Virus record (IMG/VR): IMGVR_UViG_3300017650_000002
Reading direction: 5' to 3' (one strand)
Length of the DNA stretch: 64,000 nt
Source: a virus
Lineage: Duplodnaviria > Heunggongvirae > Uroviricota > Caudoviricetes
Shown: piece after piece, positions 18,393 to 49,178 of the stretch
Layout of the letters: every line of letters begins with the position of its first letter
How positions within the stretch are numbered: the stretch's first letter is position 1
The notes under the pieces: model-generated
What the model was told of the DNA's origin: nothing
What the model saw: the letters and a program-made list of their open reading frames with translations, nothing else
Databases searched by the model: none
Program-made: the position numbers and the translations under genes

Positions 18393-18854
18393 TCAATCTT
18401 TCCTCACCTTTCCGTAAAACTTAAGTTCAGCAGATTCCCTGGCCGAAACAGCACAGTCAAAACTTTCAAACAACCCTAGGTGATGTTGCCTACCTTTGTA
18501 TGTTATTGAAGCTGCCCATTTACTAGCTCCTTTGTGCCAGTATACACCTGTTCTACCACTTGTGTTCTTATCTGACTTTCTTTTATTATAAAGTTGATCA
18601 GTTTGGTTAGACCATTTGCAATTCTCTTTGCAATAGTCACCATCCACGTCAACCCTATCTAAAGACATACCCTCTGGCCGATCTCCCATATCGTTGTGGA
18701 AATTTATAAAATCTCTCCATTCTTCACAAACTTTTATACCACGTCCACCATATCTGAAATATCCATCAAAGTTGGGATTGGTGCATCTCTGTATCATCAT
18801 TTCCCAACTTTTATAGGATGGTGTATCCGTTTTGAGATGTCTTACCCAACTCAA
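18393..18854 (-). CDS. homing-endonuclease-like protein (HNH_3-like N-domain + AP2 DNA-binding domain)
   Basis: YKSWEMMIQRCTNP...YGGRGIKVCEEW...RVDVDGDYCKENCKW plus AP2-like GRTGVYWHKGASKWAASITYKGRQHHLGLFESFDCAVSA; three paralogs in the window. Confidence 0.55.
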   Translation of the reverse strand: MSWVRHLKTDTPSYKSWEMMIQRCTNPNFDGYFRYGGRGIKVCEEWRDFINFHNDMGDRPEGMSLDRVDVDGDYCKENCKWSNQTDQLYNKRKSDKNTSGRTGVYWHKGASKWAASITYKGRQHHLGLFESFDCAVSARESAELKFYGKVRKD

Positions 18855-20158
18855 GATATAGTCTCCGTATCTATAGTTTCACAAATACCTTCAAGCACTT
18901 TGAAGGCGTAGCTCTTATTCTTCAAGAACCTAGTCTTTCCGTCATGCTCAATACGGATGATAATACCTTCCGAAATTTGAGTAGGGTTGATTAGGTCTTC
19001 AGTTAGAGAAGCTGGTCGTTCAGTTAGATTGTGCACCAAAGTGGTCAGAAAGTCTTGATCACCATTGTACACAATTTTATTAAAAACTTCCAGAGGACCA
19101 AGCAATCCACGTTGATTACACCAAGCATCCAACTCTTGTTGAGACATTTCCACAGTCTCTCCACCAACCGTCAGGCGAGTGATACGGTAAATATGGAAAC
19201 GATATTCATGCTCCTTACAACCATAGCTATAAGTCACAGTGTTTCCATACTTCTTAGTATACTCCTTATCCTTTAGGGCTGAAACATCGTGGTCAGGCAT
19301 AATAGGCTTCCCATTAGCATACCCAGCAATCTCACCATAAATGGTCATACCATATTCCATATGAGGCTTTAGAGATTCCAAAACTTCAAAACGGAAAGCT
19401 TCTGATCCATGATATCCTTCCTTGTTTGCATCACCAAGAATTACGTTTCGAGTACCTACAACATAGCTCTTCTTAGTTTCTGGAAAGATTGGAACAATTT
19501 TATTTACAAGCTTCTGGAATGCGTTAAGTTGTACAACCTCCGGCAGATAACCAACACGGAAAGAAGTGCCATGAACCTTGTGGTGGAATGACAGAATTGC
19601 ACCTTCAGGGATGGTCTGAACATAATGCTTAAATTGCTCTGAGTCCACATGCTTTGCAAAATCAGGAAACAGGTTAGCTTTACGAGATTTGTTCTGTCCA
19701 TTTGCAGCAGCAATCTGTTTCTTTGCAGCTTCTGAAATGTATTTCTGGCAAATCAGCTTCCCATTAAGTTCGGTAAACTGGTAACCAATGTCAAGCACAA
19801 AGCTTCCGACATATCCAATAGAATCAATCGACGAAAAGAATCCAGTTGACTTTACACCAAGAAATGGTTGTGCCCGGACACGACGTGAAGGTTCAAAGAA
19901 ACCCTTCTTAGTATTGTCCTTGTTGTCTTGTGAAGACCGGAACAAGTTATTCTCGCGGCAAAACTCCTCAGACAGCTGTAGGTCAACAGGAAATAGAATG
20001 CCGATATAACCAACACCCCAGTCCTTGCTTACAACAACTTGCTCACCCAGAACAGTGGCCAGATGGATACTATCTGCGGGATTCATTTCTCCAGTAGTCT
20101 TGTCCTTTACCATAATTGGGCTAACTGCGTCAATCTTTGCTACGATTGCTTGATGCAT
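18851..20158 (-). CDS. RNA ligase, Rnl2-like nucleotidyltransferase with N-terminal extension
   Basis: Motif I HHKVHGTSFRVG (cf. T4 Rnl2 EKIHGTNFSL), later EGIIIRIEHDGKTRFLKNKSYAFK (motif IV/V). Confidence 0.5.
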   Translation of the reverse strand: MHQAIVAKIDAVSPIMVKDKTTGEMNPADSIHLATVLGEQVVVSKDWGVGYIGILFPVDLQLSEEFCRENNLFRSSQDNKDNTKKGFFEPSRRVRAQPFLGVKSTGFFSSIDSIGYVGSFVLDIGYQFTELNGKLICQKYISEAAKKQIAAANGQNKSRKANLFPDFAKHVDSEQFKHYVQTIPEGAILSFHHKVHGTSFRVGYLPEVVQLNAFQKLVNKIVPIFPETKKSYVVGTRNVILGDANKEGYHGSEAFRFEVLESLKPHMEYGMTIYGEIAGYANGKPIMPDHDVSALKDKEYTKKYGNTVTYSYGCKEHEYRFHIYRITRLTVGGETVEMSQQELDAWCNQRGLLGPLEVFNKIVYNGDQDFLTTLVHNLTERPASLTEDLINPTQISEGIIIRIEHDGKTRFLKNKSYAFKVLEGICETIDTETIS

Positions 20159-30316: not shown

Positions 30317-30469
30317 GGTCGTAAGTAAAGTTCACTAGTCAGATAGTCTACCAAAGCTGACACAATTCCTTGGTAGCCAAGTTGGTAAGGCAGCACACTG
30401 TTAATGTGCCTACGCGCTAGTTTGGTCCTGGACCAAGATGGAATCTTTAATCAAACCTGGGGGCTATAG

Positions 30470-30856
30470 TTGTCAAAAAGTAAAAAGGACCTCCAACTTG
30501 GAATGAGTGTAAGTACAGCGCAGTCTAGGCTCCTAAGGGATATATTGTGGTCCCTAGTCGTGGAGACTGGTAGAAATTACTGCTGCAAGTGCAAAGAAGT
30601 TATGGATAGGAATACGTTTTCTATTGAGCATATAAAGCCGTGGCTGGACAGTGAGGATCCAGTTGGTTTATTTTACGACCTAGAAAATATATCGTTCTCC
30701 CACTTAACCTGCAACATATCCAATGCCAGAAGGGTTGTGGTATACAGAAAAGGCCAGGAAAGAGACAATAGAACAAAAGAACTAAACAGGTTGAGTAAGA
30801 GAAGAAACTACTGTCCAGACAAGAGAAGAGAAAAATATCTCCTGACGGGTAAGTAA
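30470..30856 (+). CDS. small HNH endonuclease
   Basis: CCKCKEV ... SIEHIKP ... SFSHLTCN (HNH Cys/His/Asn pattern). Confidence 0.5.
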   Translation: MSKSKKDLQLGMSVSTAQSRLLRDILWSLVVETGRNYCCKCKEVMDRNTFSIEHIKPWLDSEDPVGLFYDLENISFSHLTCNISNARRVVVYRKGQERDNRTKELNRLSKRRNYCPDKRREKYLLTGK

Positions 30857-30881
30857 ATCTAGCCCAGGGAGCCAAAATTAA

Positions 30882-30957
30882 TGCGGGAGGGAGGCAAGGT
30901 GTTCTCACGACTCTCATAAGGTCGCCTAGCTGGGTTCGATTCCCAGTCCCGCAACCA
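30882..30957 (+). tRNA. tRNA-Met/Ile2 (anticodon CAU)
   Basis: Manual cloverleaf: acceptor TGCGGGA/TCCCGCA, D GAGG/TCTC, anticodon stem CGACT/GGTCG with loop CTCATAA, T-arm CTGGG-TTCGATT-CCCAG, encoded CCA. Confidence 0.6.
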
Positions 30958-31211
30958 GCGTTGCTCTGGGAAATCCCATCCGGGTTAGTACAATCGTCAG
31001 AGCTAGGAAATCAGCAAACACCGGTAGTGCTGAGGACGACAATAGCTTCCGGGAAGCTCTAGTAATGCCGATTTGTCTTAGTGGCGTTCCTGCTTCACTT
31101 TGAACGACAGTACTAGAGTTAGGGCAGGGTCTTTAAGGCACAGGATCAGTGCTAAAGCCCTCTTCCTCCAGGATAGAGCCTAATAGGCCCCCGGAATAGG
31201 GGCAAGAATTT

Positions 31212-31285
31212 GCAGGTAAGCACAAGGTGTGCCGCAGGCCTTCCAAGCCTCGCAGAGTACGGTTCGATTCCGTCTACCCGCTCCA
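31212..31285 (+). tRNA. tRNA-like sequence, possibly tRNA-Gly(UCC), with non-canonical short D-arm (may be degenerate)
   Basis: Good T-arm (GGTTCGATTCC) and CCA; anticodon loop CTTCCAA; acceptor 6/7 paired; D-loop only 3 nt. Confidence 0.3.
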
Positions 31286-31292
31286 TTTTAAA

Positions 31293-31368
31293 GCTGTTGT
31301 AGCTCAGTTGGCAGAGCGCTTCACTTGTAATGAAGATGTCGTGAGTTCGATTCTTACCAACAGCACCA
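31293..31368 (+). tRNA. tRNA-Thr (anticodon UGU)
   Basis: Perfect cloverleaf: acceptor GCTGTTG/CAACAGC, D GCTC-AGTTGGCA-GAGC, anticodon stem CTTCA/TGAAG with loop CTTGTAA, T-arm GTGAG-TTCGATT-CTTAC, CCA. Confidence 0.85.
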
Positions 31369-31382
31369 GATAAGGAACTACA

Positions 31383-32039
31383 ATGGCTAAGCCAAAAAAT
31401 AAGTGGGAAGAAGGCCAGATGTTGGAGCTTATTGGGTTTGACCATTTTTACGTAAAACCTTCTGATGGCAAGAAGGAAAAACGGTTTAAATTCCTGTGCC
31501 ATTGTGGAAATACTGTGGTGACTTCAAAGAGAAAGGTTGAGACAGGTCACACAAAATCATGCGGATGCCTTAAGGTGACTCATGGTATGAAGAGCCATGA
31601 ACTGTATAATGTGTGGAACCTTATGCATCAAAGGTGCAAAAATACTAAATTTAGTAAGTACAAGAACTATGGAGGCCGTGGCATACGTGTGTGCGACGAG
31701 TGGAGTAATCCAATAACAGGATTTAGTTCATTCCTTTCCCACGTAGGAGAAAGGCCAGGGGATGAATATACACTGGAACGTGTCGATGTTGACGGGGACT
31801 ACTGTCCTGGAAATGTGGCGTGGACAAATGATAACTCCTTACAAGTCTTTAATCAGACTGTTAGGGAAAATAACACCTCAGGTAAAACTGGGGTGAGTTA
31901 CGACAAGTCTTGCGGTAAGTGGTGTGCCACAATTAGCAAGGGAGGTATCTCAAAGAAGCGTAAGTTTTCTACTTTCGATCTTGCCTCTGAACAGAGGGAT
32001 GCCTGGGAAATCGAATTTTATGGATTTTTAAAGAAATGA
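31383..32039 (+). CDS. homing-endonuclease-like protein (Zn-finger N-term + HNH_3-like + AP2 domain)
   Basis: LYNVWNLMHQRCKN...YGGRGIRVCDEW...ERVDVDGDYCPGNVAWTN and AP2-like GKTGVSYDKSCGKWCATISKGG...FSTFDLASEQRDAW; starts 15 nt after tRNA-Thr. Confidence 0.6.
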   Translation: MAKPKNKWEEGQMLELIGFDHFYVKPSDGKKEKRFKFLCHCGNTVVTSKRKVETGHTKSCGCLKVTHGMKSHELYNVWNLMHQRCKNTKFSKYKNYGGRGIRVCDEWSNPITGFSSFLSHVGERPGDEYTLERVDVDGDYCPGNVAWTNDNSLQVFNQTVRENNTSGKTGVSYDKSCGKWCATISKGGISKKRKFSTFDLASEQRDAWEIEFYGFLKK

Positions 32040-32455
32040 CACAACAGAATTCATCGTGGGTAAAGGGAGGAGGGTCCCCAAATCCTTCAGGAAGGCCTCC
32101 AGGCCAAATTAGTAAGCCTATTTCTCCTCTCCGTAAGACTTTGAACAAGCTGAAGGAGCTAGAAGATCAGGCCCTAGAGAATATCTCTGCTGTAGTGAAT
32201 GGGACAAAAATTGTCCTGGATGGCAAGGAAGAGGAAGTGGATAAGCAGAAGCTTGAAACTTCTAAGTGGGTAGTAGGCTCAATTGCCTCCCTAACTCGTG
32301 CTGCACTACAAGATGAGGAACTACGTCTGAAGATCAAGATGGGAAATCTGGAACCAAGCCCAGATAGTCCAACATCAAAACAAGAGGACGAGGATGAAGG
32401 AAAAGAAGTTAAGGCTTCATTCTCCCTGTCTCTTGTAAAAGACACGAAAGAGTAA
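32036..32455 (+). CDS. DUF5681-like protein (possible small terminase-like subunit), low-complexity acidic C-terminus
   Basis: N-terminal WVKGGGSPNPSGRP resembles the WxxGQSGNPxGRP signature of DUF5681 proteins that accompany large terminases; ATGA overlap with the upstream endonuclease gene. Confidence 0.4.
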   Translation: MTQQNSSWVKGGGSPNPSGRPPGQISKPISPLRKTLNKLKELEDQALENISAVVNGTKIVLDGKEEEVDKQKLETSKWVVGSIASLTRAALQDEELRLKIKMGNLEPSPDSPTSKQEDEDEGKEVKASFSLSLVKDTKE

Positions 32456-32532
32456 CTATCCGTAGGAAAGTCAGGTAATCCACTTCATTTGGAATGAAGA
32501 GACCGCTGGATCGAAGCCAGCCGGGTAGACCA
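32456..32532 (+). tRNA. tRNA-Pro (anticodon UGG)
   Basis: Acceptor CTATCCG/CGGGTAG, U8A9, anticodon stem CTTCA/TGAAG with loop TTTGGAA, T-arm GCTGG-ATCGAAG-CCAGC (A at position 54 is unusual), CCA. Confidence 0.6.
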
Positions 32533-32537
32533 TATAT

Positions 32538-32620
32538 GGGCGAGTGGTGTAATGGTAGCCACGGTGGTCTTAGAAGCCACTGCTTTTAGCGTGTCAGTTC
32601 GAGTCTGACCTTGCCCACCA
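32538..32620 (+). tRNA. tRNA-Leu (anticodon UAG), class II with long variable arm
   Basis: Acceptor GGGCGAG/CTTGCCC, anticodon stem GTGGT/GCCAC with loop CTTAGAA, 12-nt variable arm with GCT/AGC stem, T-arm GTCAG-TTCGAGT-CTGAC, CCA. Confidence 0.75.
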
Positions 32621-32626
32621 AAATAA

Positions 32627-32702
32627 GTTGCTATCGTCTAAAGGTTAGGACTACAGGTTTTCAACCTGTCAATCGCGGGTTCAAGTCCCCGTGGCAACTC
32701 CA
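32627..32702 (+). tRNA. tRNA-Glu (anticodon UUC)
   Basis: Acceptor GTTGCTA/TGGCAAC, D GTCT/GGAC, anticodon stem ACAGG/CCTGT with loop TTTTCAA, CCA; the T-stem has only 3 clean pairs (GCGGG/CCCCG). Confidence 0.55.
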
Positions 32703-33095
32703 AATATAGCTTCAGAGTGTTAAAGGACACACGCATACCTGTCACGTATGAATGAGGGGATCGTTACCCCTTGAGGCTGCCAAGATATCCGGCTTTAGTC
32801 CGGTTGAATTCACCTGGACCGTTATAGCTGCGGCTATTTCCAGGCGAGACAGATGATTCGCTACCGTCTGTCTCACTGCTAGGCCCGTTGGGACTCTTCC
32901 CTTATTGGGCCATCCGCTACCTGAGAGTAGCAGCCTCGTGCAATGCGAGGCTTAACACGAAGCTGGTAATCGTGGTGTGGAGAGGATGTCACTTTATGGA
33001 CATCGGCGGCTAGGGCAGGCAGAGTGGCCCTAGCCTAATACAACACGGTGGAGGAATCCTTAGGGATGTCCTCCATTCTTTATTTGAGGATCAAT

Positions 33096-33438: not shown

Positions 33439-34818
33439 ATGATTATCGGGCCTAGATCAGAATTCCAGGCCAGATACCTAAATTCTGATGCAGACATCAT
33501 TATTGCTGGAGGTGCGGCAGGAAGCTCTAAATCTTATGTAGGGCTGATGAGGCACATCAGGTGGTTTGAAGATCCATACTATCGTGGGTTCTGTATTCGG
33601 AAAAACTCCACTGCTATTATGAAGGAAGGCGGACTGTTTGATGAAGCTGTAGAGCTTTACAGACAGGTTGAGCCTAAGATTCAAATTAAGTTAAAAGACC
33701 AAAAGATTGTATTCCCATCAAGGGCTTCCGTATCATTCACACACTATGAGAATGACGCAGCAGGAAATACATTCCAAGGGTTGCAACTGTCAAGTGTCTT
33801 CTATGATGAAGCCACGCATGCTGCTGAGAAACACATTTGGTGGCTTGTGTCTCGTTTACGCTCCAAAGCTGCGATGAACCCATGCATCTGGTTGACATGT
33901 AACCCAGATCCAGACTCATACCTAAGGGAATGGGTGGATCCATGGTTATTCCCAGAAGGTCATGAGAAGGCAGGACTTCCAAACCCTGAAAAGAATGGAA
34001 GCGCCAAGTATATCATACGACAAGATGGTGATCTACGTTGGGCGGACACAAAAGAAGAGCTAATCGACCTTTATGGAAAAAACTGGCTTCCAATCGATCA
34101 CAAAGAACAGATTCAGCCAAAGAAGATCGAAGTGCACCTAGGGACCATCTATGATAACCCAACTCTTATGGAAACAAATCCAGGCTACCTATCAAGCCTA
34201 GAGGCTCTTCCAGAGGTTGAGAAGCAGAGGTTGCTACTAGGTAACTGGAACGTCCGTGAACAAGCTAGCTCCTATTTTAGCAGGAACTGGTGTGAGGAAG
34301 TTTCATACATCAATCCAAATGAAATACAGTCCACTGTTAGGACATTTGACTTCGCTATGACATTGAAGTCAGATCTTAACACTTCCCCTGACTACACAGT
34401 TTCAACCTTGATGCACAAGCTGAAGGATGGTACTTATGCTGTAGCTAGTGTAACAAGACATAGAATGCTTTCTGGGGATTGGATTAATTTCATTATAGAA
34501 ATTAGTAAGGATGACCCAAAAGGGACTTCATACTACCTCCCATTAGATCCTGGTCCTATGGCTAAACGTGCACACATAATCCTGAAGAGGGATCTTGCGG
34601 AGCTTGGATTAGCCTGTCAGACAATTAACACAAACAGTTCAAAGCTAGACAGGTTTAGGCCTTTCTCTGCATTTGCTCAAACCGGTGGTGTTAAGTTTGT
34701 AAAGGGCTGTGGGGTTGATTTGGAAAACAAAATCAACAACGAAAACAAGTTTATCTATAATGAGCTTGAAGCCTTTACTGGCGAAAGAAAGAAAGGAGAG
34801 AATGGGCACGACGATTAA
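33439..34818 (+). CDS. terL: terminase large subunit
   Basis: Walker A IIAGGAAGSSKSY, Walker B/coupling VFYDEATH, C-terminal nuclease-domain-sized region. Confidence 0.8.
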   Translation: MIIGPRSEFQARYLNSDADIIIAGGAAGSSKSYVGLMRHIRWFEDPYYRGFCIRKNSTAIMKEGGLFDEAVELYRQVEPKIQIKLKDQKIVFPSRASVSFTHYENDAAGNTFQGLQLSSVFYDEATHAAEKHIWWLVSRLRSKAAMNPCIWLTCNPDPDSYLREWVDPWLFPEGHEKAGLPNPEKNGSAKYIIRQDGDLRWADTKEELIDLYGKNWLPIDHKEQIQPKKIEVHLGTIYDNPTLMETNPGYLSSLEALPEVEKQRLLLGNWNVREQASSYFSRNWCEEVSYINPNEIQSTVRTFDFAMTLKSDLNTSPDYTVSTLMHKLKDGTYAVASVTRHRMLSGDWINFIIEISKDDPKGTSYYLPLDPGPMAKRAHIILKRDLAELGLACQTINTNSSKLDRFRPFSAFAQTGGVKFVKGCGVDLENKINNENKFIYNELEAFTGERKKGENGHDD

Positions 34819-34915
34819 CAAATAGGTCGTCTTTAAATCTATTGAAAACGGTGAAAACCCTCGTAAGAATTTACCTGGACAATACCGTGCGAAGCCTGGC
34901 AACAGGAACGTGTAA

Positions 34916-34954
34916 CGACTATCCCTTCGGGGAGTACACCCAAGTGGGTGGAAG
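34916..34954 (+). repeat. 39-bp intergenic element CGACTATCCCTTCGGGGAGTACACCCAAGTGGGTGGAAG (two hairpins), copy A
   Basis: Identical 39-mer recurs at 47807-47845; both copies are followed ~25-30 bp later by a GATATAGTC motif. Confidence 0.85.
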
Positions 34955-35031
34955 CGGTAGACACACAAAAGTGTGATGATATAGTCTAATCTGCATAGTA
35001 ATATGCAGCAGCCTTAACATGGAGAATTTCT

Positions 35032-35769
35032 ATGGCACATTTAAAAACAAGCATTCAGTATAAAGAATTTTACGAGTCTAACCTTTGGGGAACTATGCAG
35101 GTTGTCGATAGAAAACCTGGAAAGTTGAAGGTTAGGTTTACAGAGACAGGGTATGAGACTTGGGCTTACACCTACAACGTGTTGAACGGAAAAGTTGAAG
35201 ATAAAGTTGCTAGAGAGTCTTCAAAAACTAGGTGGAAACCCTACCATAAAGAGTTTTTGTCAAACTCTGGACATAGGTTCACGGCTTATGAGAAGTTAGG
35301 GAATAAGCTTAGGATTATCTTCCCTGTCACAGGATATTCAACAGTTGTGTACCAGAACAATGCAATTTCGGGTAAGGTTTCAGACCCTTACGAAATTTCT
35401 GTCCTTGGCGTAGGCTTTATTGGGGAATTTGACAAGTCAGTCCCTTATTGGAAACAGGCTAAGCAACTTTGGAATAATATGATGAAACGGTGTTATAACC
35501 CAAATGACACACGTGGATATTTTGGTGAATGCTTTGTTAGTGAAAGTTGGAAATGTTTTTCAAACTTCTTGAATGATATAAAACGATTGGAAGGATTCCA
35601 AGAGTGGTTGTCAGGAAAAATCCCGTATGATCTTGACAAAGATTCAAAGGTACTTGGGAACAAAGTTTATTCTTTTCCAGCTTGTAGATTTCTCCCTAGG
35701 ACTGAGAATAGATCACTAGGGGCAATCAATGCAAGAAAGGCTGGGCCTGTACTAACGACACAGGCTTAA
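35032..35769 (+). CDS. homing-endonuclease-like protein (N-terminal DNA-binding repeats + HNH_3-like core related to 18393/21825/31383)
   Basis: LWNNMMKRCYNP ... DLDKDSKVLGNKVYSFPAC pattern shared with the paralogs; free-standing between terminase and portal. Confidence 0.45.
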   Translation: MAHLKTSIQYKEFYESNLWGTMQVVDRKPGKLKVRFTETGYETWAYTYNVLNGKVEDKVARESSKTRWKPYHKEFLSNSGHRFTAYEKLGNKLRIIFPVTGYSTVVYQNNAISGKVSDPYEISVLGVGFIGEFDKSVPYWKQAKQLWNNMMKRCYNPNDTRGYFGECFVSESWKCFSNFLNDIKRLEGFQEWLSGKIPYDLDKDSKVLGNKVYSFPACRFLPRTENRSLGAINARKAGPVLTTQA

Positions 35770-35889
35770 TACAATGATTGTTGACACAATATCCGATGGA
35801 TTCTATGTGCTTGCCCGTAATAAGAGCATCCCAAGTTTCCACAGTTCGGCTACGAGTTTGATGCAACAAGTTAAATAACTGGAGGGCAA

Positions 35890-46266: not shown

Positions 46267-47082
46267 ATGACTGCAATTAGTAGCTATTATGCCAACGTTG
46301 GTGTAAGGATAGATAAGTCATCTTTATCTCAAGTTTCTAGATATCTAAGGTCTGTAGAAAACCAAGTCAGAAGGTTTCAAGCTAATATAACAAAGAACTC
46401 TCAGATAAATCTGAAGTTAAATTTGAACAACAAGGCCTTGCTTGGAAATATTAGATCTTTATTTAATAAATCCTCGTCTACATTTAAAATAAACGCAACA
46501 CTGTCTCCTCAGAGTTTAAATCACATGAGGGCACAAATTAGAAGTGCGATTAGCGGTATTACTGTCTCCCCAAGGATTAGACCTAACGTAGTGGCTCCAA
46601 GAAGCCAGCCAGGGTCTTCGGGGGGTAGGCAAACAGGACCAAGCCGTAACCCTACTAGCAGGCCTACAAGCCCATTCCACAACCCTATGATGGTAGGGGG
46701 AGGGGTTGGTGCCTTTATGAGGTATGGCGCATTCTCACTACCATTTGTTGCAGGTTCTTTTGGTTTGAATGCCCTTTCTAACAGGGCCGCAGTATTGCAA
46801 AACCAGGACATGATGATGGACGTGTCCATTGGTGCCCTAGGCTCTGCCGGAGAGTCAGAGAGATACAAGAAGTTTCTTAATGACCTCGGAGATAGGCTAG
46901 GAAGGACAACAGAATCAATGACCCCGTTCTTCTCTCAGATGCTCTCAGGAGCTAAGGGGACGGAACTAGAACCTCACCTCCAAGAGGGATTTGCATCTCT
47001 TATGGAATTTGGTTCAGTGATGGGGCTTGGTACTGAGTCTATGAAGGGAACAATTAAAGCCTTCACCCAAATGATTTTGTAA
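46267..47082 (+). CDS. tape measure protein, N-terminal segment (putative)
   Basis: Low-complexity Ser/Gly/Pro/Asn-rich protein with a Gly-rich hydrophobic patch, followed by an HNH gene and a second TMP-like ORF. Confidence 0.45.
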   Translation: MTAISSYYANVGVRIDKSSLSQVSRYLRSVENQVRRFQANITKNSQINLKLNLNNKALLGNIRSLFNKSSSTFKINATLSPQSLNHMRAQIRSAISGITVSPRIRPNVVAPRSQPGSSGGRQTGPSRNPTSRPTSPFHNPMMVGGGVGAFMRYGAFSLPFVAGSFGLNALSNRAAVLQNQDMMMDVSIGALGSAGESERYKKFLNDLGDRLGRTTESMTPFFSQMLSGAKGTELEPHLQEGFASLMEFGSVMGLGTESMKGTIKAFTQMIL

Positions 47083-47179
47083 TAAAGATCGCTTACAGGG
47101 AAACTTGTAAGGCAATATCTCTTGAAATGCTGGAAACTCCTAAAGATCACACACTACAAAGTAGTCTTAACAGACAAGC

Positions 47180-47207
47180 TTGAATGTTTGAAAAGTTGTG
47201 GTATAAT
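47180..47207 (+). promoter_or_regulatory. sigma70 promoter: -35 TTGAAT, 16-nt spacer, extended -10 TGGTATAAT, driving the HNH gene
   Basis: Read directly. Confidence 0.5.
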
Positions 47208-47231
47208 GAATCCTTTTAGGAGGATTCTGAA

Positions 47232-47795
47232 ATGGACAATCAGCAGGGAAGATTCAAAACTAAAGTAAGACAATATAAAGATTTGCCCTTGTATGTCGCA
47301 GAGGACGGAATTATGTTCAATGCTAAGGGCGAACAGAGGTCTACCCACTTACATCGAAGCGGATATCTTCGAGTTGAGGTAATGGTAAACCGAGTAAGAC
47401 ACATACTGCCAGTTCACAGAACTGTAGCTGAACTCTATCTAGACCCTCCAAGTGAGGGGCTTGTTGATAAGTGTTCCAGAGAGCATTGGGGTAAAGTTCT
47501 AGTGTGTCACAAAGATAATAATGTGTTGAATAACCACTACACAAACCTGTACTGGGGAAGTTTGGACGATAATACAAAACAAGCCTTTAAAGATAAGCTT
47601 GTGTCCAACAGCCCAGGGGAAAGAAACGGACAGGCAAAAATGACCAATGAACTGGTCCATGAAATCTGTAGGTTCTACCAGAATGGTGGTTCTAGAAAGT
47701 CTGCGGAGATTAAGTTTAATATCTCCAGGCATCAGGCTTATTCTATATACACTAGAAGAAAATGGCTAGACATAAGCCAACATTATAAGTTTTGA
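47232..47795 (+). CDS. HNH homing endonuclease (classical HNH_3 type)
   Basis: VCHKDNNVLNNHYTNLYWGS (H-N-N core) and AGGAG RBS; inserted between the two tape-measure-like ORFs. Confidence 0.65.
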   Translation: MDNQQGRFKTKVRQYKDLPLYVAEDGIMFNAKGEQRSTHLHRSGYLRVEVMVNRVRHILPVHRTVAELYLDPPSEGLVDKCSREHWGKVLVCHKDNNVLNNHYTNLYWGSLDDNTKQAFKDKLVSNSPGERNGQAKMTNELVHEICRFYQNGGSRKSAEIKFNISRHQAYSIYTRRKWLDISQHYKF

Positions 47796-47806
47796 ATAAC
47801 CCTCAT

Positions 47807-47845
47807 CGACTATCCCTTCGGGGAGTACACCCAAGTGGGTGGAAG
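47807..47845 (+). repeat. 39-bp intergenic element, copy B (identical to 34916-34954)
   Basis: Exact 39/39 identity. Confidence 0.85.
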
Positions 47846-47975
47846 TGGGAGAGTCCGTAACAGCTAGGCTGATGGATAAGATATAGTCAAGACTTCAAGG
47901 AAACTTGAAGCTGCGTGTAATGACGCGGGGAGTGATTAACGACCATTCCTGAATAAATCGGGTAAACAACAAATT

Positions 47976-49178
47976 ATGGCTGAAGAACTGCGGGGTCAGG
48001 CTGCTGAACACCTACCCCCTGTTGTACGTATGATGGCTGAGGCTGTCACAGGTGGAGACGTGAAGGCACTGAACAAGATGATGGAGAAGGGGGAGTTAGA
48101 CCCCAACAAGCATCTTCCACTATTGTTCAAGGCTATGAGGGCTAATGCCCAGCCATTCATGGAGCAGTATTTTAAAACAATCACATTCTGGCAAGGAAAG
48201 GCTCAGAAAAGCCAGGAGGACTGGCTTAAGAAGTTTCTAGGATCAGGTGGTACTCAAGCTCTAGCTGGCTTCTATAAAACCTGGAATCAGGTCATTGGAG
48301 ATTCCATCCCAATGGCTGAGAAGCTAGGTGGGATATTCAAGAGTATGGTCCACTACTTCAACGCTGCCCTCCTTGCTCCGGGTGAGATTATGGATTGGTT
48401 TAACGGGACAGCCAGAGGTGATAACTTCATGAAGGCTATCTTCGGGGACAGCGCAGACCAATCCTTGGCAGATATTCGTGAAATGTTCTCCACAATTGCA
48501 TCTTCATTCAAGAGTATGATAGATAGCATGACTGGGGATATGACAGGTCTTAGCACTCTGATGGGTGCTGTAGGGGATCTAGTGGGTATGGTTGCGAATG
48601 CCGTTAAAAATCTTATCAGGGTACTGGATGCCTATACAACTGGTGGGTTTTCAGGTATCCAACACGAACTCAAGAGGCAGGACGTAGAAAGATACTACGA
48701 CGGAGTTGCTAGGAGGGAACTGGCAGCTTCTGGCATGGACTACGATGAGAGGGATGTCAGAAAGGTAAGAGAAGGGTATATGATGGATTGGGACAGTAAA
48801 TATTCTGCCCCAAGTGCCCCTCCAGATCAGTCTGCCTCAGCAAGCTTCGGTGGGATGTTATCACAAGGTTATCAAGAGACAAAGGATCTTGTGAACTCCG
48901 GAAACTTCTCTATGGGTGCCCTCTGGGACATTCTAAATAAAGACCGGTCTTCAGGGATTGTTGGTAATGTTCCATCAAACACACCTTCCATAATGTCAGG
49001 ACCATCAGACAGTACAGTTACTGTTAGAGTTATCCAGGATCCATTGCAAGTTAATGCGGTAGTGGAGGCTCGTACAGATGCAGAGGCTGTAGCCCAAGAG
49101 GTTAAAGCCAGAATAGAGGAAAACGACAGGAGAGTTACACAAGGGTTACTATCCAACTTTCCTATGACAGCGCAGTAA
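47976..49178 (+). CDS. tape measure protein, C-terminal segment (putative)
   Basis: 400-aa alpha-helical, Ala/Met/Gly-rich protein immediately upstream of the baseplate genes. Confidence 0.45.
   Translation: MAEELRGQAAEHLPPVVRMMAEAVTGGDVKALNKMMEKGELDPNKHLPLLFKAMRANAQPFMEQYFKTITFWQGKAQKSQEDWLKKFLGSGGTQALAGFYKTWNQVIGDSIPMAEKLGGIFKSMVHYFNAALLAPGEIMDWFNGTARGDNFMKAIFGDSADQSLADIREMFSTIASSFKSMIDSMTGDMTGLSTLMGAVGDLVGMVANAVKNLIRVLDAYTTGGFSGIQHELKRQDVERYYDGVARRELAASGMDYDERDVRKVREGYMMDWDSKYSAPSAPPDQSASASFGGMLSQGYQETKDLVNSGNFSMGALWDILNKDRSSGIVGNVPSNTPSIMSGPSDSTVTVRVIQDPLQVNAVVEARTDAEAVAQEVKARIEENDRRVTQGLLSNFPMTAQ

Follow-up and report, generated by a model that had tools for sequence, protein, structure and literature searches.

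The 39-nt element that occurs twice in the window (the whole 64,000-nt stretch of viral DNA analyzed here) is part of a ribozyme core and not a free-standing regulatory element, and very probably represents the 5′ strand of P7 together with hairpins P7.1 and P7.2 of two subgroup IA2 group I introns. In agreement with the initial annotation, CGACTATCCCTTCGGGGAGTACACCCAAGTGGGTGGAAG is present in exactly two copies identical at 39/39 positions, copy A at 34916-34954 and copy B at 47807-47845, both on the + strand as are all features described below, and the search of the 64,000-nt window gave no third copy at ≤3 mismatches. The chance expectation, taken from 100 dinucleotide-preserving shuffles, was 0 matches. 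In copy A, C34916 is followed by the P7 5′ strand GACUAU (34917-34922), P7.1 as CCC-UUCG-GGG (34923-34932), the linker AGUA (34933-34936), P7.2 as CACCC-AAGU-GGGUG (34937-34950), and GAAG (34951-34954). The same elements of copy B are the P7 5′ strand at 47808-47813, P7.1 at 47814-47823, AGUA at 47824-47827, P7.2 at 47828-47841, and GAAG at 47842-47845. P7 is the guanosine-binding helix of group I introns. The published hallmark of subgroup IA2 is a pair of domain-7 hairpins (P7.1 and P7.2, between P7 and the P3 3′ strand) joined by G-U-A (PMC3428280, PMC4227781), and both copies carry it as CCC-UUCG-GGG, the A-GUA linker, and CACCC-AAGU-GGGUG. A downstream extension, GAT(G/A)ATATAGTC, had also been ascribed to both copies; it fits copy A, but copy B reads GATAAGATATAGTC, and the motif that is truly shared is the 9-mer GATATAGTC at 34978-34986 and 47880-47888. 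A third GATATAGTC at 18855 was rejected as a chance match, being antisense to the local genes and having no intron features.

Intron A (34816-35776; 961 nt, subgroup IA2, without P2) was located in the large terminase gene (terL). Exon 1 of terL (33439-34815) comprises 459 codons ending in ...GENGHDD and matches Pfam Terminase_6N and Terminase_6C as well as phrog_979 (E 2.7e-142). Rfam RF00028 matched positions 34743-35008 with 72 bits (E 2.5e-16; gathering score 50); in this alignment GACUA of copy A is P7, the hairpins are an insertion between P7 and the P3 3′ strand, and GAUAUAGUC is placed at J8/7-P7′. The Rfam boundaries of the intron were dropped because the Rfam P1 (34743-34771) lies inside conserved coding sequence and exon 1 reaches 34815, and the boundaries were re-set from the protein junction, the P1 pairing, and the orthologous introns. 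With these boundaries, the intron begins with UAA... after U34815, and its last base is G35776. In P1 (34810-34831), exon GACGAU (34810-34815) and U34816 face the internal guide GGUCGUC (34825-34831), the 5′ splice site is marked by the wobble pair U34815-G34826, and this helix was predicted by an unconstrained fold too. The free-energy fold of the ORF-deleted intron gave P1, P3, P4, P5, P6, P7.1, P7.2, P8, P9, and P9.2. The P3 3′ strand (CGGUAGA, 34955-34961) with P8 (CACAC/GUGUG, 34962-34975), and the P7 3′ strand (AUAGUC, 34981-34986) with P9 (CUGCAUA/UAUGCAG, 34991-35008), were assigned from the Rfam alignment, the fold, and pair counts. Hairpin P9.2 (35744-35766, GGCCUGU-ACUAACGAC-ACAGGCU), assigned from the fold, is followed by the tail UAAUACAAUG and then by the 3′ splice site behind G35776. 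A P9.2-type hairpin with a ...UAACGA... loop before the 3′ splice site is also present in intron B and in family members.

Exon 2 of terL (35777-35878) consists of 33 codons (35777-35875) and a stop codon and encodes IVDTISDGFYVLARNK...QQVK. At the DNA level, the junction joins CACGACGAT to ATTGTTGAC, and the predicted spliced product has 492 aa. A homologue, P0002 (493 aa; 80% identity and 100% coverage to spliced terL), runs unbroken through the junction (GHDDIVDTISDGFYALARGK, GHDDIVDTISDGFY), and intron-less terL homologues go on from ...GHDD into IVDTISDGFY, while many other terL homologues stop right behind GHDD. After splicing in silico, Terminase_6C aligns up to profile position 149 of 155 instead of 143, with 31.7 bits in place of 26.2, and 99% of the spliced terL is matched in one piece by isolated Pseudomonas phages. 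From these alignments, intron A is placed between the GHDD and IVD codons of terL, in a nuclease-domain motif. Copy A, which had been described as lying between terminase and portal, is instead inside the terminase gene, the last 33 codons of which come after the endonuclease ORF.

Intron B (47077-47960; 884 nt, subgroup IA2) begins with UUGUAA... after U47076, ends in G47960, and divides the tape-measure gene into exon 1 (46267-47076; 270 codons ending in ...GTIKAFTQMI) and exon 2 (47961-49178, beginning GKQQIMAEELRGQAAEHLPP). The RF00028 score of this intron, 33.5 bits, is below the gathering score of 50 (E 1.6e-6 locally and 8.7e-5 in the whole window); it is penalized by a 564-nt ORF in P6 and a P5 extension of about 100 nt, and the alignment misplaces the ORF in P8. 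The helices were therefore assigned from a comparative alignment of a version trimmed by hand of its ORF body and P5 extension, since the long P5 extension made MAFFT misalign the 5′ half of the unedited intron. P1 (47073-47090) pairs GAUU and UU on either side of the splice site (47073-47078) with AAGAUC (47085-47090), including a U47076-G47087 wobble at the 5′ splice site, and P2 pairs 47092-47099 with 47104-47111; both agree between sequence, Rfam alignment, and fold. The P3 5′ strand is UCUCUUG (47118-47124), P4 is formed by UGCUGG (47128-47133) and UCAGCA (47240-47245), the long P5 extension occupies 47134-47239, and the P6 5′ strands are GGG (47246-47248) and AUUCAAAAC (47252-47260). Behind the 39-mer follow the P3 3′ strand UGGGAGA (47846-47852), P8 (47853-47858 with 47872-47877), the P7 3′ strand AUAGUC (47883-47888), P9 (47893-47899 with 47904-47910), P9.1 (47911-47916 with 47923-47928), and P9.2 (47929-47934 with 47944-47949). 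The fold of intron B recovers P1, P2, P6, P7.1, P7.2, P8, P9, P9.1, and P9.2; an unconstrained fold of the edited intron mispairs P3 and P4, both of which come from the comparative alignment only. In the family alignment, the intron B pairs of P3, P4, P6, P7, P7.1, P7.2, P8, and P9 are all standard. Read from the sequence by eye, P10 pairing amounts to about 3 bp in intron A and is not clear in intron B. In domain 9, intron A has P9 and P9.2 with the ORF at the expected place of P9.1, and intron B has P9, P9.1, and P9.2.

The tape-measure junction joins CAAATGATT to GGTAAACAA in the DNA and ...FTQMI to GKQQ... in the protein, which gives a predicted spliced product of 675 aa with the junction at residues 270/271. 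Pfam TMP_3 matches this product once, over residues 190-333 and across the junction, with 51.7 bits (cut-off 41), whereas before splicing exon 2 alone reached 20.5 bits and exon 1 was without a match. The uninterrupted homologues P0121, P0122, and P0125 are identical through the junction, reading GTIKAFTQMIGKQQIMAEELRGQAAEHLPP. Considering that the spliced protein matches uninterrupted homologues, the two tape-measure-like ORFs of the initial annotation are two exons of one gene. Introns A and B were the only group I introns found when the whole window was searched with Rfam at E values up to 1.

Both endonuclease-like ORFs lie, as judged from splice sites set by the protein junctions, inside the introns and are not free-standing as had been supposed. 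Their positions relative to the 39-mer were correctly described: copy A is 78 nt upstream of the ATG at 35032, and copy B is 11 nt downstream of the stop at 47795. The intron A ORF (35032-35769; 245 aa) is situated between P9 and P9.2, and its 3′ end overlaps P9.2. It matches phrog_2081 'HNH endonuclease' (E 2.3e-45), with no match in Pfam and no sequence match in PDB. Its conserved motif is Y-x-LDKD-x5-N-x2-YS-x3-C-x-F-x5-N, in which LDKD replaces HxD and there is no obvious catalytic His; the nuclease activity of this ORF is uncertain. Homologous ORFs of 238-243 aa occupy the same position in the terL introns of L055, L056, and L058. The putative HNH endonuclease ORF of intron B (47232-47795; 187 aa) fills the P6 loop and overlaps core strands at both ends: its AUG (47232) is within the P5 3′ strand, the P4 3′ strand corresponds to codons 3-5, and its UGA stop is within the P6 3′ strand GUUUUGAAU (47789-47797). 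This ORF matches phrog_59 'HNH endonuclease' (E 8e-21) and, weakly, Pfam HNH_3 at residues 90-114 (E 0.035), and its translation contains CHKDNNVLNNHYTNLYW with the pattern CHKDNN..NN...NLYW. A PDB sequence search gave nothing significant for it, and a nearly identical ORF is present in L061. A TTGAAT-16-TATAAT site at 47180-47207 in intron B may start a transcript inside the hairpin in which the ribosome-binding site of this ORF is sequestered.

To evaluate the secondary structure, we aligned 20 introns, including A and ORF-deleted B. The P3-P9 structure was paired in 97.8% of cells, compared with 74% in shuffles and 32-40% with partners slid, and changes on both sides were found in 33 of the 46 pairs. 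The covariation score was 0.60 against 0.15, a value reached by none of 500 shuffles, and all pairs of A and B are standard in this alignment. The P7 pairing is that of GACUAU with AUAGUC (6 bp) in A, B, and all 20 introns, so this helix is paired but, being invariant, is without covariation support. The first collection of family members was fetched with a search pattern that left few of the 39 positions free, and the conservation seen inside it, where variation is confined to the P7.1 loop, one P7.2 pair, and one loop base, is thus partly circular. A second collection was made with the module left free in the search pattern. Its 24 distinct modules all read as hairpin - AGUA - hairpin; the stems come in 6 versions for P7.1 and 19 for P7.2, every pair being Watson-Crick or G-U, and the two hairpins that had been noted in the 39-mer are accordingly genuine RNA helices. 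With two degenerate patterns, 49 and 38 viral contigs with introns of this lineage were obtained; the host genes checked among these contigs were terminase and one probable capsid gene, the tape-measure cases having come from protein look-ups. The same module is found in dozens of phage introns that are otherwise divergent. The near-exact core had no match in 185,579 bacterial and archaeal genomes and therefore gives neither a clue to the host nor prophage copies.

Related phages carry both genes with and without the introns. In L054, terL is uninterrupted and adjoins the portal gene, and the intron-less allele reads GGTCACGATGAC followed by ATAGTTGATACC at the insertion site. Introns are present at the same terL site in L055-L058 and L060 and 3 nt upstream in L059, with Rfam scores of 93 bits for L055 and 81 bits for L056. 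The P1 pairing of intron A is found in the terL introns of L055-L058 and L060 as well; in L059, P1 is shifted by 3 nt and the guide sequence is changed to match. An orthologous tape-measure intron occupies the same site in L061 and L062, and that of L061 differs from intron B by two P7.2 bases, a compensatory change from C-G to U-A. For both genes, intron-plus and intron-minus alleles thus coexist among related phages. By sequence comparison, the phage appears to be without a close cultured relative: a megablast of the terL region against 50,697 phage records returned only the intron core of Bacillus phage beta22 and one 45-nt match, and the nearest terL proteins, those of Pseudomonas phages vB_PsaM_M1, vB_PpS_SYP, and phiPMW, are 55-58% identical.

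Collaborative or trans homing is known from phage PhiI and the cyanophage psbA gene, and intron A could by analogy be a short, ORF-less intron ending at about 35008, with the ORF at 35032 as a free-standing homing endonuclease. The full-length Rfam match does stop at 35008, just ahead of the ribosome-binding site of the ORF, and free-standing endonucleases aimed at intron insertion sites are documented (PMC3984707). However, we consider such a short intron highly improbable, because exon 2 follows the ORF: the terminase C-terminus that would be lost (IVDTISDGFYVLARNK...) is encoded at 35777-35875, and a splice at 35008 or 35011 would have ...HDD run into a stop or junk. P9.2 and the conserved 3′ tail ending in G also come after the ORF, P9, P9.1, P9.2, and the 3′ splice site are contiguous in the ORF-less introns of L059 and L060, and the P1 belonging to the Rfam boundaries is within conserved coding sequence. 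There is likewise hardly any probability left for the 39-mer as an autonomous cis element, as the initial annotation had proposed in three forms. Its two stable hairpins, the adjoining endonuclease ORFs, and a weak promoter-like match at 34958-34985, overlapping the region 3′ of copy A, would fit that view; yet each base is placed in the group I core with the backing of covariation and Rfam, and ORF-less introns (L001, L011, and others) contain the module too. A promoter or UP element is inconsistent with a P7/P7.1/P7.2 core segment located 5′ of one ORF and 3′ of the other. The suggested role in RNA processing or stability of late transcripts holds to the extent that the element is structured RNA and processing is loosely true as predicted self-splicing, but the element is not an RNase site. 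Homing endonucleases cut the intron-less exon junction. The 39-mer has no similarity to the exon junctions that such an enzyme would recognize and so is not an endonuclease target or flank, although the element is indeed tied to presumably mobile cassettes with endonuclease genes.

Constraint on the core may not be the whole explanation of the identity between the two copies. Introns A and B agree at 39/39 positions inside the element but at only 44% over the remaining aligned P3-P9 core, which could reflect recent gene conversion between the co-resident introns, with a module bounded by GACUAU and GAAG; we regard this as unlikely. In the same vein, the introns of L055-L058, which are the orthologues closest to intron A (same site, homologous ORF, identity of 59-67% outside the element), have another segment here, UAUGUA with one hairpin, in which only 8-14 of the 28 inner positions match intron A, and the L061 orthologue of intron B departs from it at two P7.2 bases. 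On the other hand, the exact 39-mer is also found in a third, unrelated intron of other phages (L001, L003-L006), beta22 matches it at 38/39 positions, and terL-type introns with the same ORF start (L068, L077, L094), as well as many others, have the canonical two-hairpin module. The gene-conversion reading was downgraded because this wider sample of terL-type introns shows the canonical module to be common in the clade, and the UAUGUA form looks like a derived sub-clade. Furthermore, few positions vary, so that two random family members would be identical about 10% of the time (a hand estimate from variant counts), and the flanking micro-homologies, 7 and 4 nt long, offer very little length for recombination. 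There is thus a small chance that the 28 variable-capable P7.1-P7.2 bases are a short conversion patch from one co-resident intron to the other. If so, phage group I ribozyme cores would evolve as mosaics via module exchange within one genome.

Taking conserved core structure as the preferred reading, we are highly confident that two presumptive subgroup IA2 self-splicing introns, one in terL and one in the tape-measure gene, share a single structural module. What was observed directly is the sequence, the secondary structure with its covariation, the exon junctions, and the intron-less and intron-bearing alleles of relatives, and from these we infer the splicing of both introns as well as endonuclease activity and homing. 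In the proposed mechanism, the intron RNAs would fold after transcription of the late operon, an external guanosine would attack the phosphate behind the U of the P1 U-G pair, and the freed exon end would attack behind the terminal G of the intron, so that the exons are joined and the full-length terminase and tape-measure mRNAs restored. Homing would follow from cleavage of intron-less alleles in co-infecting relatives by the intron-encoded endonucleases, the intron being copied into the cut allele during repair. The 39 bases would be identical because the segment is the most constrained core part of a large intron lineage and not a separate repeat.

The thymidylate synthase intron of Bacillus phage beta22 belongs to the same lineage: it is identical at 38/39 positions of P7-P7.1-P7.2, shows 86.6% identity to the intron A region over 81 nt (megablast), resembles our introns in J6/7, P6, P9, and the P9.2 layout, and carries an intron ORF. 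It differs in its host gene (thy) and Gram-positive host, in P3, P4, P8, and P9, where the changes are compensatory, and in its ORF, which by our own reading of the sequence is apparently in the P8 region and not in P6 or P9.1. In terms of gene arrangement, the closest likeness is Vibrio phage ICP1, the tape-measure and large-terminase genes of which are split by intronic HNH-3 endonuclease genes (Barth et al. 2023, PMC10448857), with spliced transcripts demonstrated by RNA-seq and RT-PCR (PMC10448857). The same two genes of one phage are each split by an insert bearing an HNH gene, although ICP1 is an unrelated phage and splicing in the present window is predicted. Group I introns with an HNH gene inside the large terminase gene are also found in Shewanella phage vB_SspS_KASIA, where splicing was verified by RT-PCR (PMC8541194), and in Lactobacillus phage LL-H and Bacillus phage Moonbeam (PMC4299906), but these terminases are of a different family. 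The T4 td, nrdB, and sunY introns and the Pf-WMP3 DNA polymerase intron share the IA2 architecture, with P7.1/P7.2 joined by G-U-A and an extended P9, but reside in other genes and encode other endonuclease families (GIY-YIG in td). The Pf-WMP3 intron is, like intron A, without P2, and its ORF extends into core helices (PMC3428280). Collaborative homing pairs a free-standing endonuclease with an ORF-less intron (Bonocora & Shub 2009; Zeng et al. 2009); the arrangement supposed in the initial annotation would correspond to it, but it does not apply here, both ORFs being within the intron boundaries. Terminase and tape-measure genes carrying mobile IA2 introns with HNH genes are already documented, and the present pair is nothing new in kind. 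In the position of its ORF, intron B resembles td (P6 loop) and intron A resembles sunY (P9 region).

The compared alleles show two insertion hot spots, the nuclease-motif codons of terL (HDD/IVD) and the most conserved stretch of the tape-measure protein; in each, introns have entered at two or more different sites that lie only a few bases from one another. The 39-base module can serve as a practical search key for this intron lineage. Gene callers split the terminase to a truncated ORF of 459 aa and the tape-measure gene to ORFs of 271 and 400 aa, while the real products would have 492 and 675 aa, and the public protein clusters P0001 and P0123 consist of exactly those fragments.

The 39-mer CGACTATCCCTTCGGGGAGTACACCCAAGTGGGTGGAAG is present in two exact copies on the + strand, copy A at 34916-34954 and copy B at 47807-47845, as the initial annotation had reported. 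No further copy was found in the 64-kb window at ≤3 mismatches, and none appeared in 100 shuffled sequences. The ORF at 35032-35769 begins 78 nt downstream of copy A, and the one at 47232-47795 ends 11 nt before copy B. The two copies also have the 9-mer GATATAGTC in common downstream (34978 and 47880), while the longer version of this motif proposed earlier fits copy A only. In an Rfam search, the group I intron family RF00028 matched 34743-35008 at 72 bits (gathering score 50). This alignment assigns GACUA of copy A to the 5' strand of P7 and GAUAUAGUC downstream to J8/7 and the 3' strand of P7, with both hairpins inserted between P7 and the P3 3' strand. The region of copy B gave a full-length RF00028 match in a permissive search at 33.5 bits, below the gathering score of 50, with E values of 1.6e-6 locally and 8.7e-5 for the whole window; the Rfam search of all 64 kb returned no group I match besides these two. 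Subgroup IA2 is defined by two domain 7 hairpins linked by G-U-A together with an extended P9 (PMC3428280, PMC4227781), and the core of the thymidylate synthase intron of Bacillus phage beta22 is identical to the 39-mer at 38 of 39 positions.

Copy A belongs to an intron in the large terminase gene (terL). The upstream terL ORF (33439-34818, + strand; Pfam Terminase_6N and Terminase_6C; phrog_979, E 2.7e-142) terminates in ...GENGHDD, and the frame after G35776, past the endonuclease ORF, encodes IVDTISDGFYVLARNK...QQVK before a stop codon. The joined protein of 492 aa was covered at 100% by uninterrupted homologues in the protein collection, the closest of which (P0002, 493 aa, 80% identical) reads ...GENGHDDIVDTISDGFYALARGK... 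without a break. The isolated Pseudomonas phages vB_PsaM_M1, vB_PpS_SYP, and phiPMW are 55-58% identical and match 99% of spliced terL in one piece, and the Terminase_6C match became longer and higher-scoring once the exons were joined. Considering that homologues are continuous across the junction and that exon 2 follows the ORF, intron A spans 34816-35776 on the + strand with the 245-aa ORF inside. Its P1 pairs GACGAU/U (34810-34816, slash at the splice junction) with GGUCGUC (34825-34831), with a U-G wobble at U34815, and the intron opens with an in-frame UAA; an unconstrained fold agrees with the pairing. When the ORF was deleted, the unconstrained fold recovered P1, P3, P4, P5, P6, P7.1, P7.2, P8, P9, and P9.2, the last being a hairpin (35744-35766, + strand) that overlaps the ORF end. 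Intron A is devoid of P2, which the RF00028 alignment deletes, and resembles the IA2 intron of Pf-WMP3 in this respect (PMC3428280). The P1 that Rfam proposed (34743-34771) was wrong, lying about 70 nt too far upstream within the terminase coding sequence, so a high score does not guarantee correct automated boundaries for such introns. As for the encoded protein family, the ORF at 35032-35769 and its alignment contain two N-terminal repeats, GKLKVRFTETGYETWAYTYNVLNGKV and NKLRIIFPVTGYSTVVYQNNAISGKV, and a conserved C-terminal motif, Y-x-LDKD...N..YS...C.F.....N, that resembles the HNH_3 motif minus its usual histidine. The product is possibly a variant nuclease or an inactive one.

Copy B belongs to an intron in the tape-measure gene (TMP). 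The upstream ORF (46267-47082, + strand) ends in ...AFTQMIL, and the downstream ORF (47976-49178, + strand) has a partial Pfam TMP_3 match from profile position 108. Joining 47076 to 47961, after G47960, yields a 675-aa TMP with a single TMP_3 stretch across the junction (residues 190-333, 51.7 bits, cut-off 41); taken separately, exon 2 reaches 20.5 bits and exon 1 gives no match. P0121, P0122, and P0125, uninterrupted homologues at 55-62% identity and 100% coverage, read GTIKAFTQMIGKQQIMAEELRGQAAEHLPP here, which is the same sequence as at the spliced junction. P1 of intron B (+ strand) pairs GAUU/UU (47073-78) with AAGAUC (47085-90), with a wobble at U47076, and P2 comes next. The HNH ORF (phrog_59, E 8e-21; weak Pfam HNH_3) begins in the 3' strand of P5, crosses that of P4 (UCAGCA), occupies the P6 loop (AUUCAAAAC with GUUUUGAAU), and has its stop inside the 3' strand of P6. 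Copy B is followed by the P3 3' strand, P8, the P7 3' strand, P9, P9.1, P9.2, and the terminal G. Both endonuclease ORFs are therefore inside intron boundaries set by protein junctions rather than free-standing, as the initial annotation had described them; its idea of an RNA element associated with endonuclease cassettes was right, while those of a promoter and an endonuclease target site were wrong.

At the site of intron B, an orthologous intron and ORF were found in L061 and L062, contigs from a phage with a TMP exon 2 only 47% identical, and the only difference of their 39-mer from that of the window is a compensatory replacement of a C-G pair by U-A in P7.2. Another contig, L063, contains an unrelated group I intron (150-1290), whose core is different and whose 219-aa ORF is of the NUMOD4/HNH_3 type. 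It interrupts the same conserved TMP stretch (IKA/FTQMIGKQ) 12 nt upstream of the intron B site, so that two or more insertion sites exist there. In the stretch 47180-47234, within the P5 extension of intron B, we also observed a strong sigma-70-like site (TTGAAT-16 nt-TATAAT, TG before the second hexamer, 10/12 matches), directly followed by an 8-bp hairpin (47208-15 with 47220-27) that sequesters AGGAGG, the HNH ORF's ribosome-binding site. If transcription initiated about 7 nt past the -10 hexamer, the RNA would start within the 5' arm of the hairpin and the ribosome-binding site would be freed. The region is nearly identical in L061, and regulation of this kind would be similar to that of I-TevI expression in the T4 td intron.

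A degenerate core pattern retrieved 49 viral contigs. We aligned 20 introns, comprising A, B with its ORF body and P5 extension removed, 14 retrieved by the pattern, and those of the contigs L055-L058, and scored P3, P4, P6, P7, P7.1, P7.2, P8, and P9. Paired cells amounted to 97.8%, compared with 74% in shuffles and 32-40% with partners slid, and both sides changed in 33 of 46 pairs. The covariation score of 0.60 (vs. 0.15) was reached by none of 500 shuffles, and all pairs of A and B were standard. P7 was invariant across the 20 introns and thus has no covariation support. Since the first pattern allowed variation at only a minority of the 39 positions, a second scan was run with the module left free, in which all 24 distinct two-hairpin modules parsed as P7.1, AGUA, and P7.2, with 6 different P7.1 stems and 19 different P7.2 stems, all Watson-Crick or G-U.

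In the protein collection, a large number of terL homologues end right after GHDD, and seven contigs (L054-L060) were fetched for comparison of the terL site. In L054, terL is uninterrupted and abuts the portal gene. L055-L058 have an intron at exactly the site of intron A (Rfam scores of 93 bits for L055 and 81 bits for L056). An ORF of 238-243 aa, homologous to that of intron A and identically placed, is present in L055, L056, and L058; in L057, only the ORF start is visible as the contig ends inside it. Two more distant relatives have ORF-less terL introns, L060 (3790-4070) at the same site and L059 (3880-4125) 3 nt upstream (GHD/DIPD), where the internal guide sequence is altered to match its site, GUCGUGU pairing with ACACGAU. 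As such, relatives without the endonuclease, whose inspection had been suggested initially, either lack the whole intron (L054) or keep it ORF-less (L059, L060). A terL-site sub-clade without P7.1 (L055, 3850-4033; L056, L057, L058, L072, L078, and L087) has UAUGUA or CAUGUA and then a single AAGU-loop hairpin between P7 and GAAG.

Introns A and B are identical at 39/39 positions inside the 39-mer and at 44% over the rest of the aligned core. This disparity, along with the different segment (UAUGUA and a single hairpin) in the closest orthologues of intron A (L055-L058), would fit gene conversion of a short patch between the two introns, which share a genome. However, the exact 39-mer is also part of a third intron, which lacks an ORF and is found in other phages (L001, L003-L006), the beta22 core is nearly the same, terL-type introns with the same ORF start have the canonical module (L068, L077, L094), and few positions vary within the intron lineage. 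We thus regard conversion as unlikely; the identity can be accounted for by constraint, with chance at the few positions free to vary. The third intron (L001, 4195-4485; also L003-L006) differs in P3, P8, and P9, and its host gene is probably the major capsid protein gene of uncultured phages.

The analysis shows the sequence, structure, junctions, and allele distribution of introns A and B; from the known behavior of group I introns (PMC3984707), both would be expected to splice and to home. Their arrangement has close precedents. In Vibrio phage ICP1, the tape-measure and terminase genes are both interrupted by HNH-3 genes within introns, and spliced transcripts have been demonstrated (PMC10448857), and Shewanella phage KASIA has an RT-PCR-verified terL intron carrying an HNH gene (PMC8541194). 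Terminase genes of LL-H and Moonbeam contain group I introns (PMC4299906), and two tail genes of Cluster J mycobacteriophages have identical introns (PMC3706429). The chief value of the present analysis is correct annotation and a search key for the 39-mer intron lineage.

Elsewhere in the window, a tRNA cluster (30367-32782) comprises six tRNAs detected by ARAGORN (Met, Thr, Pro, Leu, Glu, and Asp) and a borderline Rfam match at 30367. Two small ORFs lie among them, 30470-30856 (Pfam HNH, 21.3 bits, cut-off 21.4) and 31383-32039 (weak AP2 domain), and both appear to be truly free-standing homing-endonuclease-like genes. The 153-aa ORF at 18393-18854 on the - strand had no Pfam match. Its motif W..M..RC.NP...Y..YGGRG...W, read by eye from the reverse complement, is also found mid-way in the intron A ORF, and the 153-aa ORF may be another endonuclease-like gene.
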